NCBI GenBank assembly: GCA_050633305.1
Contig: JBOEGF010000022.1
Span: 1 to 64,000, forward strand
Origin: Nannocystales bacterium
Lineage (GTDB): Bacteria > Myxococcota_A > Polyangia > Nannocystales > Nannocystaceae
Reading direction: 5' to 3'
Length of the DNA: 64,000 nt
Numbering within the stretch: the first letter of the stretch is position 1; each line of letters opens with the position of its first letter. A program made the position numbers. Below are positions 21,701-24,700 of the stretch, piece after piece.

Positions 21701-24700
21701 GCCGACGGTGATCTGGCGGTCCGTTCGGCAGCCAAGGGCGCGGACGAGTTGGGCCAGCTCTCTGCGGCGTTCAACGACATGCTCGATCAACTGCAACGCG
21801 CACAAGCGCGTGTCGGGTACTTGCAACGCATCGGAGCATGGCAAGAGATGGCCCGCCGCATCGCGCACGAGATCAAGAACCCGCTGACGCCGATCTTGCT
21901 CGCGGTTCAGCAGCTTCGAGACAAGGACCCCGGCTTGAGCCCGTCGTTCTCCAAGCTGCTCACCACGTCGACCGAGATCGTCGAGGACGAGGTTGAGGCG
22001 CTTCGCCGCATGGTCACCTCGTTCTCTCAGTTTGCGAAGGTGCCGCAGGTGCGCGCCGAACCGGTAGGACTCGGCCGGGTGCTGGACGAGTTCGAGCGGG
22101 CGTATGGCCACCTGACCGACGAGGCTCAGGACGTCCTCGAGGTCGCGAAGCCCACCCCCGATCCGGAGCTCGTCGCAGACCGCCAACTCATCAAGCAGGT
22201 GCTCGTGAACCTGGTCGAGAATGCCGTGCTCTCGGCCCGCGAGGCGGGACGGAGCCCGGTGCGGGTGGAGGTCTCCGCGCTCGTCGATGTCGATGCGGTC
22301 GAACTGCGCGTCGACGACAACGGGCCGGGAATCGCAGCGGAGCGTCGCGAGCGGGTGTTCGAGCCTTACGAGACGACGCGTGAGCAGGGGACCGGGTTGG
22401 GGCTGGCGATCGTCAAGAAGGTCGCGCTCGATCACCGGGGCGATGTCTGGGTCGACGCGTCGCACCTGGGCGGCGCACGCTTCTGCCTCCGGCTACCCCG
22501 CGCTCCGTCGGGCTGATACGGTTCTTCTCGCCGTGCAGACTCCCGAGGAAACAACCGTAGAGGTACCCGGTTTCGAGCTCGCCGCTCGCGTATGGGGTCC
22601 GCCGGACGGGCGTCGCGTGTTGGCCTTGCACGGGTGGCTCGACAACGCGGCGAGCTTTGATGCACTCGCGCCGAGGCTGCCAGGCTGCCGCATCGTCGCG
22701 CTCGACATGCCTGGGCATGGGCATTCGACTCACGCGGCACCCGGGGCGGTCTACCCATTCGTCGACTTCGTCGCGGCGGCTCACGGCGCGCTGGATGCTC
22801 TGGGTTGGGAGACGTGCACGCTGATGGGCCACTCGCTGGGCGCATCGGTCTGCGCGACGCTGGCCGGCACGACGCCGCAGCGTGTCGAGCGGCTGGTTCT
22901 ACTTGAGGGGGTCGGACCGTTGACCACCACCGCAGCGGACGCGCCCGAGCGACTTGCGGGGGCGTTGCGGGAGCAGGCCCGCAAGCAAGCTCGGCCGCTG
23001 ACGAGCTATCCCGGTGTTGCGCACGTCGCCAAGGCGCTCGCGTTGTCGCCCTCGAAGCTGACCCCAGAGTCGATTCAGACTCTCCTCGGCCGAGGTCTGA
23101 AGCCGACGGAGGGCGGCGTGCAGTGGCGGAGCGACCGCCGGTTGCGGTACGGCTCGCGGACCCGGTTTACGGAGGAGCAGGTCCTGGCGTTCTTGGGGCG
23201 GATCGGCTGTCCGGCGCTGCTCATCTTCGCGAAGGACGGCCTTCGTATGCCGGAGGCCGTCATGAACGCCCGCATCGCCGCGATTGCGGACCTGGAGCTG
23301 GTCGAAGTTGCGGGGCACCATCATGTGCACCTCGATGCCCCACAGACCGTCTCGCCCGCGGTGGCAGCGTTTTTGGAGCGCGGGTGAGCGGGCCGGCCTA
23401 TTGCCCTTTTTACTGCGAGGAGAACATCTGGCATCTCGCGGCCGATCCGCGGCTCGGCGAAGGCCGACGCCGAGTCCTGCTGATCTCCAACCGAAGTCAG
23501 CGAGTTGCCTTGTGGGGACAGCGTTCGGGATTGGAGGACTCGGATGGACTCGTCGTGTGGGACTACCACGTGGTCCTGACCTGCGGCGCGGGGGAAGACG
23601 CGGTGGTCTGGGACCTCGACACCACGCTCGGGACTCCGGTGCCGCTGGCGGTCTACCTGCCGCGGACATTTCGCGGCGCGCCCGAGCCGTTTCTCCCGAT
23701 GTTTCGGGTCTTCGGGGCGGATGCGTATCGGGACGGGTTTGGGTCGGACCGTCGGCATATGCTCGATGGGGACGGCGCGTTCCTTCAGGCTCCACCTGTG
23801 TGGCCACCGATCGGTTCGACACATACGCTCCAGGCGTGGCTCGACTTCGAACGCGACGAACCCGGGCAGCTCGTCGACCTCCCCGGGTTGGTGGCGCTGC
23901 TGGGCTGAGTCCCGCTCCGCGGCCTGCAGAAACGAAGACGCCCAGGGGGTCTTCGACCGCCCCGGACGCCAGCGAGTGTTCATGCGCTACTCAGGCAGAC
24001 ACTGGCCGAGCAGCGGGCCGACGCAGGCATTGGCCTGTGAAAACGTCGTGGACCCGAACGAGCCGCTGGGGAACGTTGCGTCCACAATCGTGACACTGGC
24101 GATCTCCACGGAGTCGCTGGCGCGGGTGACCGTGATGTCGCTCTGCGTCGCGGTGTACTCGATCGCCACATCGTAGGCTTCGCCTTCGACCCAGCCCTGC
24201 GTGGTTGTTGCGGCGGGCAGGGCGAGAACCGTGGACTGCGTTGTCGCCGCAGGGCAGTACAGGTCGGCGGTCGTGAGGTCCGCGACGCTGTCCGCTTCGA
24301 TGCGCTTGACCAGGATTCCGCTCGGTGCGGTGCACGGACCGATCCCTTGCGCCCCCTCTTTCCACACCAGCGAGTAGAAGTTGGAGGCGTCTTGCGCACC
24401 CCAGACGAGTCCTATCCAGTCGTCGTCGCCGGCGTCGTCTTCGATCTCGATCGTGCCCGTCAGCAGTGTGTTCTCGAAGACGACCTCCTCGCATAGATGG
24501 AGGCCGATGCCGCTGTTGGCGTTCTCGCAGGCTCGAGTACTACTGTCCTGATAGGACACCGTCGCGGTGCCGGTCCCGGCGATGTCGGTGTACAGCGTGC
24601 AGTTGTCCTCCAGGTTGAACGGGTTGCTGTTGAGCACGACCACGGTGTCCTGTGCGGTTGTGACGCCGTCATCAACGGTCACCGTATACGACTGGAACCC

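Follow-up and report, generated by a model that had tools for sequence, protein, structure and literature searches.

Tertiary destabilizing residues, that is, N-terminal glutamine and asparagine, which are processed by an amidase first, are described for eukaryotes only in the part of PMC11441550 that deals with them. A gene in the genome of a Nannocystales bacterium raises the question whether bacteria, too, possess this tier of the N-degron pathway. The window that we analyzed comprises 64,000 nucleotides of contig JBOEGF010000022.1 (positions 1 to 64,000, forward strand). The first-pass annotation of this DNA described the gene as a homolog of the eukaryotic N-terminal glutamine amidase NTAQ1 and interpreted it as the "missing top tier" of a bacterial pathway. 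The relevant part of the window contains the following features:

20993..22516, plus strand: histidine kinase gene, with HATPase_c, HAMP and HisKA domains
22530..23387, plus strand: alpha/beta hydrolase gene, about 285 aa, with a GHSLG nucleophile motif (PF00561, 94 bits)
23375..23387, plus strand: GGAG Shine-Dalgarno-like motif, 5-nt spacer and GTGA start/stop overlap, read from the sequence
23384..23908, plus strand: NTAQ1-family gene, 174 aa, identified by the PF09764 profile, structure matches, conserved residues and model fold

The NTAQ1 open reading frame starts with GTG, and its GC content by codon position (0.73/0.49/0.77) resembles that of the adjoining genes. The PF09764 profile matches residues 6-166 of the protein with 135.3 bits (E 2.3e-39, cut-off 27), covering profile positions 1-177 of 184, that is, nearly the whole domain; no NCBIfam model matches the protein. 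When the phmmer search against the human NTAQ1 structures 4w79 and 3c9q was re-run, the previously given value was obtained again (E 9.1e-21), and the claimed identity of 34-35% to plant and animal NTAQ1 falls within the 31-40% measured by BLASTP across 14 named eukaryotic NTAQ1s (34-38% for plants, 36-37% for fish). The catalytic triad of human NTAQ1 is reported to consist of Cys28, His81 and Asp97 (PMC4214742); in the phmmer alignment, these residues correspond to C11, H62 (within WDYH) and D77 (within DLD) of the bacterial protein, in line with the initial description of an intact Cys-His-Asp triad. Similarly, the human residues that are reported to recognize the alpha-amino group (Glu29, Asp79, His148) and to contact the substrate backbone (Tyr80, Met149; PMC11168063) are matched by E12, D60 and H125, and by Y61 and M126, respectively. 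The triad and all these substrate-holding residues are invariant in 121 of the 121 aligned sequences. The predicted structure of the protein (pLDDT 96.7) recovers the alpha-beta-alpha sandwich of human NTAQ1 in a Foldseek search, with TM scores of 0.88-0.90 and rmsd of 2.1-2.5 Å against 15 human NTAQ1 entries (E 1.7e-15 at TM 0.89), and no family other than NTAQ1 appears below E 0.04. No signal peptide is present. Because the sequence, the conserved substrate-holding residues and the predicted fold all point the same way, the assignment is strongly supported, and the product of 23384-23908 is probably an N-terminal glutamine amidase of the NTAQ1 type.

The amidase gene is closely linked to the gene upstream of it. 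No stop codon interrupts the frame of the alpha/beta hydrolase from 22221 onwards, and 22530 is an approximate start; the hydrolase matches PDB entry 7al5 ("Probable hydrolase") over its full length (E 1.8e-62), and no NCBIfam model reaches its own cut-off against it. The TGA stop codon of the hydrolase overlaps the GTG start codon of NTAQ1 in the tetranucleotide GTGA at 23384-23387 and, together with the GGAG motif and the 5-nt spacer, this overlap suggests that the two genes are translationally coupled. An ortholog of the hydrolase lies directly upstream of NTAQ1 in seven other loci (L003, L004, L008, L009, L026, L087 and L091), all of them Nannocystaceae-like; L009 comes from the cultivable Enhygromyxa salina DSM 15201. 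The histidine kinase gene possibly belongs to the same transcription unit; in L091, the upstream gene picked by gene prediction is a kinase as well. A sigma-70 scan of positions 20000-24400 yielded no promoter-like site, and a terminator scan was likewise uninformative. The idea that NTAQ1 is generally paired with the alpha/beta hydrolase was discarded: the hydrolases encoded upstream of NTAQ1 in L022 and L031 belong to a different, MenH-like family.

The other components of a bacterial N-degron pathway are encoded elsewhere in the genome. All four genes named by the first-pass annotation were found, namely, a single Bpt (ATE_C) gene on contig C7, Aat on contig C12, and adjacent ClpS and ClpA genes on contig C18. 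In the proposed pathway, NTAQ1 would act as a cytosolic cysteine amidohydrolase that binds proteins or peptides starting with glutamine at their free alpha-amino end. C11, H62 and D77 would then hydrolyze the side-chain amide via a thioacyl intermediate, so that ammonia is set free and glutamate becomes the N-terminal residue. This glutamate would be the substrate of Bpt, which would add leucine, and the leucine N-terminus would be read by ClpS, with ClpAP degrading the protein. N-terminal glutamine, uncovered by endoproteolytic cleavage, would thus function as a tertiary destabilizing residue. Bpt is reported to add leucine to N-terminal aspartate or glutamate, a specificity known from one species (Graciet 2006, as described in preprint 10.1101/2021.07.26.453911), and we assume that the Bpt of the Nannocystales genome has the same specificity. 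A complex prediction for Bpt with NTAQ1 (score 0.01, mark 0.32) counts neither for nor against binding. We estimate the probability of the whole chain, with the NTAQ1 amidase feeding Bpt and ClpS-ClpAP, at roughly 0.5; the amidase activity, the hand-over to Bpt and the effect on protein half-life are the steps that we infer.

If NTAQ1 feeds Bpt, the phyletic distribution of the two genes is of obvious relevance. At E up to 0.001, the NTAQ1 family has matches in 1,845 clusters of 50% identity, among them eukaryotic ones. The earlier counts of PF09764, 48 of the 401 sampled Myxococcota and none of the 14 control bacterial genomes, were obtained again; Escherichia coli, one of the controls, has neither a PF09764 nor an ATE_C match. 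Within Myxococcota, a Bpt match accompanies NTAQ1 in 18 of 48 genomes, compared to 103 of the 353 genomes without NTAQ1, that is, with no significant phylum-wide association (p 0.24), and canonical Bpt is absent from 34 of the 48. The counter-argument that had been raised against the pathway, namely, that only 17 of the 47 other NTAQ1-bearing Myxococcota possess Bpt, reproduces on cross-tabulation, although the Bpt background of the phylum is 121/401 (30%) rather than the previously given 40% or so. The NTAQ1-bearing Myxococcota that lack Bpt are found mainly in three families (f20, f34 and f41, with 14, 7 and 8 genomes, respectively); most of these genomes are at least 90% complete, and ClpS is present in 32 of the 34 genomes without canonical Bpt. 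In seven other families of Myxococcota, all 14 NTAQ1-bearing genomes have a strong Bpt match.

Outside Myxococcota, the counts differ: 32 of the 38 NTAQ1-bearing genomes also encode Bpt, a figure that includes metagenome-assembled genomes regardless of completeness, against background rates of 5-51% that were taken at the phylum or class level and include related, non-independent genomes. The individual groups are Planctomycetota (5/5 NTAQ1-bearing genomes with Bpt, background 22/101), Gammaproteobacteria (13/15, background 77/151), Spirochaetota (4/5, background 43/121) and Melainabacteria (2/2, background 4/61). In a sample of the class Lentisphaeria, Bpt is present in all 10 genomes with NTAQ1 compared to 9 of the 51 without it (Fisher p 1e-6); the association persists among genomes of at least 4.5 Mb (p 1e-4) and after removal of the three genomes that had pointed to this class (p 4e-5). 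The weak association between NTAQ1 and Bpt proves to be an effect local to Myxococcota. Altogether, NTAQ1 is a conserved bacterial family the members of which, outside this one phylum, track the presence of Bpt.

Gene neighborhoods are less informative. Open reading frames of at least 80 aa were clustered in 67 and then in 114 NTAQ1 loci of about 10 kb; Pfam domains were annotated for 62 upstream and 59 downstream neighbors of the first 66 loci, and for 87 of the 91 neighbors of the 47 Myxococcota loci, leaving aside two very long open reading frames and the pair from L093, which duplicates L031. None of the 114 loci contains Bpt, ClpS or ClpA within about 5 kb of NTAQ1, which bears out the initial remark that no N-degron gene lies nearby, save for one locus (L071) with Aat at a distance of about 3 kb. 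Some loci offer weak contextual hints of proteolysis: in three from Lentisphaeria (L036, L038 and L043), the gene immediately upstream encodes a Lon N-domain protein, and L107 and L109 carry an NFACT/RqcH-type gene that lies upstream of NTAQ1 at a distance of about 0.8 kb. The conserved neighborhood was abandoned as a guide to the function of NTAQ1, the partners being lineage-specific only and mostly unrelated to proteolysis. The search for domain fusions, a weak line of evidence, revealed no bacterial fusions of NTAQ1, and no fusion with an N-degron domain.

An N-terminal glutamine amidase could have a different job in these bacteria, such as editing or protection of N-termini (for example, by blocking the cyclization of glutamine to pyroglutamate) or some role shared with lineage-specific partners. 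In the Nannocystales genome, that partner would be the overlapping alpha/beta hydrolase, and the pair linked by the GTGA overlap is indeed kept in the seven related loci; elsewhere, apart from the Lon-N gene, the candidates are tightly paired genes for an FHA protein (upstream of NTAQ1 in L066, downstream in L021), an ADP-ribosylglycohydrolase (L032, L049, L055, L059 and L069) or a PrmA-like methyltransferase (L045, L075, L083 and L096). Such a role is compatible with the identical, conserved active site and alpha-amino site and would also accommodate the many myxobacteria that lack canonical Bpt. However, the near-confinement of NTAQ1 to Bpt-bearing genomes outside Myxococcota would be left without explanation and, given that no partner is common to all lineages, none can define the function of the family. 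We regard this alternative as possible but doubtful.

We consider it unlikely that the substrates of the enzyme are small molecules or short peptides instead of proteins, that is, Gln-X peptides or gamma-glutamyl or glutamine-derived metabolites in nitrogen or peptide salvage. Several neighbors point in this direction, namely, genes for gamma-glutamyltranspeptidase (convergent with NTAQ1 in L036, L038, L043 and L053), gamma-glutamyl cyclotransferase (directly downstream in L054), a class-III aminotransferase (downstream in L006 and L048) and Amidohydro_1 (downstream in L022, L031 and L106); moreover, human NTAQ1 is reported to grip the backbone mainly at its first residues (PMC11168063), so that short peptides should fit as well. 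Yet each of these neighbors is limited to a single lineage, the window contains no pointer to a metabolite pathway, and the co-occurrence with Bpt would again be unaccounted for. The papain/transglutaminase superfamily fold, with protein-glutaminases and SseI described as remote structural neighbors (PMC4214742), could also indicate a deamidase of internal residues, a transglutaminase-like enzyme or a protease, similar to other papain-fold deamidases. This is highly improbable, because the positions holding the free alpha-amino group show no variation and the Foldseek matches to such proteins do not surpass E 0.04 and TM 0.38, compared to 1.7e-15 and 0.89 for NTAQ1.

The reading of NTAQ1 as the first step of a Bpt-ClpS-ClpAP pathway is thus favored by the presence of Bpt, ClpS and ClpA in the same genome and by the occurrence of NTAQ1 almost only together with Bpt outside Myxococcota; against it stand the 34 of 48 Myxococcota without canonical Bpt and the lack of linkage in 114 loci. 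The pathway is still inferred because no N-degron gene adjoins NTAQ1, because most NTAQ1-bearing Myxococcota lack canonical Bpt, because the partners vary with the lineage, and because activity and degradation are predicted only; for these four reasons, the "missing top tier" is a good, testable hypothesis rather than a finding. It is open to direct test by standard reporter and peptide assays. The lineages without Bpt provide a lead towards a possible alternative transferase. Nearly all NTAQ1-bearing myxobacteria that lack Bpt encode a Fem/MprF-like tandem-GNAT protein (PF13480), which never occurs in the same genome as Bpt, and in one family the PF13480 gene is arranged head-to-head with NTAQ1. 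Under a broader, speculative scenario that we deem improbable, many bacteria would possess three tiers (NTAQ1, an aminoacyl-tRNA transferase and ClpS-ClpAP), the PF13480 enzyme would replace Bpt in the Myxococcota without it, and the glutamine branch (NTAQ1 and ATE1) of the Arg/N-degron pathway in eukaryotes would descend from this bacterial module. A recent transfer of NTAQ1 from a eukaryote is not supported, given that the 19 eukaryotic sequences fall on one side of a branch of the tree and no bacterial sequence lies among those of animals, plants or fungi; the tree is unrooted, so that the direction is not set by it.

A literature search found no paper on bacterial NTAQ1. The Vibrio vulnificus type of Leu/N-degron pathway, with aspartate and glutamate as secondary residues, shares Bpt, Aat, ClpS and ClpA with the system proposed here but, in the part of preprint 10.1101/2021.07.26.453911 that covers it, is described with primary and secondary residues only and without mention of an amidase tier. 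If the proposal is correct, a third tier would be added to the bacterial pathway. Yeast NTA1 and mammalian NTAN1 are described as occupying the equivalent place, converting a tertiary into a secondary residue (PMC11168063, PMC11441550), but belong to unrelated families and are not among the matches to the bacterial protein. The protein-glutaminase of Chryseobacterium and Flavobacterium (PDB 2KSV, 8Z3I) shows a remote, papain-like similarity of fold and a Cys-His-Asp triad (PMC4214742; Foldseek E 0.04-0.07, TM 0.38) but is secreted and acts on internal glutamines of proteins. The closest counterparts are human and mouse NTAQ1 (PDB 4W79, 3C9Q, 6KGJ and the 8JJ*/8JK* series), which share the Pfam family, the triad, the alpha-amino and backbone residues and, with TM of about 0.89, the predicted fold, at 31-40% identity to the eukaryotic members; the bacterial protein is shorter (174 compared to about 205 aa), with the catalytic cysteine at residue 11. 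The partners would differ, with Bpt (leucine) and ClpS-ClpAP in the bacterium in place of ATE1 (arginine), UBR ligases and the proteasome in human and mouse. The recognition domain of the ClpS/UBR type is homologous between the bacterial and eukaryotic systems and, if the proposed pathway exists, NTAQ1 would be the third component common to both, after ATE1/Bpt and this domain.

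The first-pass annotation had recognized a bacterial homolog of the eukaryotic N-terminal glutamine amidase NTAQ1, and this observation is confirmed: the 174-aa ORF matches both the NTAQ1 family domain PF09764 and human NTAQ1. The gene follows a DUF4390-like gene and the two upstream genes listed here, and faces a convergent gene for a Cys-rich repeat protein.

20993-22516: HAMP histidine kinase, upstream of the hydrolase gene
ends at 23387: alpha/beta hydrolase with the nucleophile motif GHSLG, directly upstream of NTAQ1
23384-23908, + strand: NTAQ1-family ORF, 174 aa, GTG start
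23987-27109, - strand: 1,040-aa protein with about 16 Cys-rich repeats (NG-ETD-DCGG type) and a thrombospondin C-terminal-like domain, convergent with NTAQ1

The GC content of the NTAQ1 ORF by codon position (0.73/0.49/0.77) is like that of the two upstream genes, as expected of a real gene in DNA of 67% GC. The GTG, with GGAG 5 nt ahead of it, shares bases with the TGA stop of the gene upstream (GTGA, 23384-23387). The start is probably correct because a database cluster 99% identical to the protein and others at 72-79% identity share the 174-aa length. The window protein has no signal peptide-like N-terminus, and the catalytic Cys is residue 11.

The assignment as an NTAQ1-type amidase is strong by sequence, conserved residues and predicted fold. 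The window protein scores 135.3 bits against PF09764 (Nt_Gln_amidase; cut-off 27), matches human NTAQ1 structures at E 9.1e-21 and is 31-40% identical to 14 named eukaryotic NTAQ1s. In the AlphaFold model (mean pLDDT 96.7, built on 59 sequences), the fold is that of NTAQ1: the 15 top-listed PDB entries found by Foldseek (ranks 1-17) are without exception human NTAQ1 (E 1.7e-15 to 5.5e-14, TM 0.88-0.90), and the next family is protein-glutaminase (E 0.04, TM 0.38). NCBIfam has no model for this protein; automatic annotation in nr, UniRef or JGI calls some homologs 'protein N-terminal glutamine amidohydrolase'.

As described in passages of two structural papers, human NTAQ1 has the triad Cys28-His81-Asp97, with Asp97 bonded by Tyr111 (PMC4214742); the substrate's alpha-amino group is held by Glu29, Asp79 and His148 via two waters, and its backbone by Tyr80 and Met149 (PMC11168063). 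By alignment, the window equivalents are C11, H62 and D77 for the triad, Y91 for Tyr111, E12, D60 and H125 for the alpha-amino site, and Y61 and M126 for the backbone site. Among 121 sequences (the window protein and its 120 best database hits), no variation is seen at any of these positions other than Y91, where 78 sequences have Y, 42 have W and one has F. Since the residues that would recognize a free N-terminus never vary in this set, the specificity machinery is, judging from the alignment, under selection in bacteria. Mainly for this reason, we put the probability that the window protein has N-terminal Gln amidase activity at roughly 0.8.

The alpha/beta hydrolase reaches no NCBIfam cut-off; it is close to PDB 7al5, a 'Probable hydrolase' (E 1.8e-62), for which we found no paper. 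In 7 other loci, all Nannocystaceae-like, NTAQ1 is immediately preceded by an ortholog, with 0-27 nt between the two genes. The overlapping hydrolase gene is a family-restricted partner. Orthologs of the 1,040-aa repeat protein occur in two other NTAQ1 loci, L003 and L004. Elsewhere, the gene upstream of NTAQ1 encodes PEP carboxylase in Chromatiaceae, RF3 in some Planctomycetota, a cNMP-binding protein in Spirochaetes (with an ADP-ribosylglycohydrolase-phosphatase downstream) and, in L022 and L031, a MenH-like hydrolase other than that of the window (with an amidohydrolase downstream). DUF1003 is found beside NTAQ1 in Kofleriaceae, FHA proteins in L066 and L021, and a convergent downstream gamma-glutamyltranspeptidase gene in the Lentisphaeria loci L036, L038 and L043. 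Among ORFs of at least 80 aa in 114 NTAQ1 loci, searched with the proteins of the window's own genome, none resembled Bpt, ClpS or the ClpA N-domain; an Aat homolog lies about 3 kb from NTAQ1 in one of the 114 (L071).

Several other neighbors were observed. An ADP-ribosylglycohydrolase gene adjoins NTAQ1 in two unrelated lineages, Spirochaetota (L032, L049, L055, L059) and Myxococcota (L069); in Spirochaetes the protein is fused to a dual-specificity phosphatase domain. In L036, L038 and L043, NTAQ1 starts where the gene for a 211-aa protein, a stand-alone Lon N-terminal (substrate-binding) domain, ends. One myxobacterial genus has a ribosome quality-control gene about 0.8 kb upstream of NTAQ1, in the same orientation, and a DNA methylase-like gene downstream.

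L038:5345-5977, + strand: Lon N-domain protein
L107:6301-8271, - strand: NFACT/RqcH-type gene
L109:6274-7749, - strand: NFACT/RqcH-type gene

In a full HMMER scan of 1.84 billion cluster representatives, 1,845 clusters matched with E no higher than 0.001, and 1,095 with E no higher than 1e-10; both numbers include eukaryotes. Peptide patterns retrieved 66 NTAQ1 loci from one-genome-per-species contigs, with hosts in Myxococcota, Gammaproteobacteria (Chromatiaceae, Thiotrichaceae, others), Planctomycetota, Lentisphaeria, Spirochaetota, Melainabacteria, Bacteroidota, Acidobacteriota and others. In a quick maximum-likelihood tree of 75 rows (the window protein, the 55 of 66 loci with at least 140 aa and no stop, and 19 hand-picked eukaryotes, 18 of them named), a branch with SH-aLRT 94 has all 19 eukaryotic proteins on the same side, and no bacterial sequence is nested within animals, plants or fungi; the tree is unrooted and does not distinguish bacteria-first from eukaryotes-first. 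Myxococcota form at least 5 separate groups, so that transfer among bacteria is frequent. With L003 and L004 the window protein makes a group (support 100) close to Enhygromyxa; it therefore looks vertically inherited within Nannocystaceae. L012, from a MAG with the label Oligoflexales, has an NTAQ1 that barely differs from those of two Melainabacteria MAGs (L013, L015; branch lengths 0.006-0.04), because of either faulty binning or very recent transfer.

The first-pass annotation had placed NTAQ1 at the top of a bacterial N-degron pathway. The window's own genome (an 11-Mb assembly, 92% complete) encodes one NTAQ1, one Bpt (a 270-aa ORF on contig C7), Aat (C12), and ClpS with an adjoining ClpA above the equivalog cut-off (C18). 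Immediately downstream of bpt, in the same orientation and after a gap of about 90 nt, comes a gene of the arginine deiminase family (PF02274, 221 bits).

L002:49-1365 (own genome, contig C7), - strand: arginine deiminase family gene

Against its own reading, that annotation had counted Bpt in 17 of the 47 other NTAQ1-bearing Myxococcota, and the count is right. In the sample of 401 Myxococcota genomes, 48 have NTAQ1 and 121 have Bpt (ATE_C), with Bpt in 18/48 NTAQ1 genomes vs 103/353 without NTAQ1 (Fisher p 0.24). Bpt is matched strongly in all 14 NTAQ1 genomes of the sample families f1, f2, f23, f54, f60, f63 and f66; canonical Bpt is missing from the other 34, which are spread over f20 (14), f34 (7), f41 (8), f62 (2), f50, f58 and f61, and ClpS is present in 32 of these. 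Four of the 34 have weak ATE_C matches alone (E 1e-15 to 1e-17, one 8e-8); two that we read are of a 350-aa paralog type matching both ATE_C and Acetyltransf_6. This paralog has no Cys-rich ATE_N part, and several myxobacterial families carry it as a second copy; the f20 genomes that carry it also carry NTAQ1 (3/3).

L120:865-1914, + strand, and L121:798-1859, + strand: 350-aa paralog type (ATE_C 56-63 bits, Acetyltransf_6 weak)

Outside this phylum, the association is closer. Bpt was sought in the genomes of 50 of the 66 loci; the other 16 (L014, L037, L041, L043, L045, L047, L050, L052, L053, L055, L056, L058, L063, L065, L066, L067) are mostly second members of included lineages, L063, L066 and L067 excepted. 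Bpt is present in 39 of the 50, that is, 7/12 Myxococcota-like genomes and 32/38 others.

Table. Bpt in NTAQ1 genomes and in the group background
Planctomycetota: 5/5; background 22/101
Gammaproteobacteria: 13/15 (two labelled 'Proteobacteria' and no finer); background 77/151 (75/149 minus G811 and G709, flagged unpublished, both positive)
Spirochaetota: 4/5; background 43/121
Melainabacteria: 2/2; background 4/61
Lentisphaeria: 10/10; background 19/61

For Planctomycetota, Gammaproteobacteria and Spirochaetota together, 22/25 Bpt genomes were seen vs 10.4 expected (Poisson-binomial p = 9e-7 if genomes are independent, 7e-4 after collapse to 13 lineages by our own tree reading). In the Melainabacteria class sample, the sole family-level NTAQ1 match is the Bpt-bearing center genome. 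The Lentisphaeria class sample, 61 genomes in which both families were sought, gives the cleanest test; by the tree, NTAQ1 has at least two origins in this class. Bpt is found in 10/10 genomes with NTAQ1 vs 9/51 without (p 1e-6), in 10/10 vs 3/15 among the 25 genomes of at least 4.5 Mb (p 1e-4), and in 7/7 vs 9/51 minus the three genomes that pointed to the class (p 4e-5). In all these statistics relatives are not independent, backgrounds are coarse and the MAGs are of unknown completeness. Nevertheless, five groups repeat the pattern that a tier upstream of Bpt would predict, 'NTAQ1 only where Bpt is'. The pathway reading is thus better supported than the first-pass annotation allowed, but clearly not universal in Myxococcota; we consider it plausible but unproven.

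In f34, a Bpt-less family, NTAQ1 is divergent from the gene for a 335-aa PF13480 (Acetyltransf_6) protein (L041, L045, L027/L076, L073, L088, L096; 2.2 kb away in L083), often with a PrmA-like methyltransferase gene downstream of NTAQ1. A profile of five such proteins (alignment A3) gave full-length matches at E 1e-52 to 1e-194.

L096:3946-4941, L041:2033-3070 and L045:3931-4947, all - strand: PF13480 tandem-GNAT protein (also in 20 further loci, L145-L164)

Table. Genomes with the PF13480 protein
Bpt-less NTAQ1 Myxococcota: 33/34 (26/27 outside f34); the sole miss is a genome of 87% completeness, split into 1,270 contigs
NTAQ1 Myxococcota with Bpt: 0/14 full-length (one partial, 5.6e-11)
Bpt-positive, NTAQ1-negative Myxococcota: 0/10 (five in f37)
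Bpt-positive genomes, other phyla: 0/5
Myxococcota with neither: 5/15 (two in f37)
Bpt-less NTAQ1 genomes, other phyla: 1/5 (Acanthopleuribacteraceae MAG, 1e-42)

Overall, the full-length protein is found in 0/29 Bpt genomes vs 39/54 Bpt-less ones. By hhalign, its C-terminal half aligns with the ATE_C part of Bpt (probability 71%, E 3.7e-5), and the best PDB matches of its model (pLDDT 93.3) are aminoacyl-tRNA-dependent transferases, namely, the Sba18/Sbb17 peptide synthases, MprF and FemX, along with alanyl- or lysyl-phosphatidylglycerol synthases. Distribution and fold would thus fit another aminoacyl-tRNA transferase that replaces Bpt. However, the PF13480 family also occurs in both NTAQ1-negative genomes tested from f20 and f41, so that the pattern may be largely plain lineage, and its neighbors in f20 and f41 (71 of 76 neighbors of 20 loci annotated) are phospholipid genes: CDP-alcohol phosphatidyltransferase in 4 loci, PlsC-type acyltransferase in 2 and cardiolipin-synthase-like PLD in 2. 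These neighbors point to a lipid acceptor, as for MprF, and we treat replacement of Bpt as an unlikely explanation, retained as a lead.

In the proposed NTAQ1-Bpt pathway, N-terminal Gln would have to arise by internal cleavage; methionine aminopeptidase is known not to remove Met before Gln. The free N-terminal Gln of a protein fragment or peptide would bind through its alpha-amino group to E12, D60 and H125 (via waters) and through its backbone to Y61 and M126; C11, activated by H62 and D77, would attack the side-chain amide, ammonia would depart and water would free N-terminal Glu. This mechanism, carried over by homology, is the one proposed for human NTAQ1 in PMC4214742. The Bpt of the same genome would then add Leu, and ClpS would hand the protein to ClpAP.

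A full-text search, with most subscription journals outside its coverage, found no paper on bacterial NTAQ1. In the passages available, a papain-fold survey lists PF09764 with no comment on bacteria (PMC10318531), a 2024 review names Nt-amidases for eukaryotic pathways only (PMC11441550), and a preprint on LFTR lists secondary residues alone for bacteria (10.1101/2021.07.26.453911). Compared with these accounts, a bacterial N-degron pathway with an NTAQ1 tier would, if true, be new.
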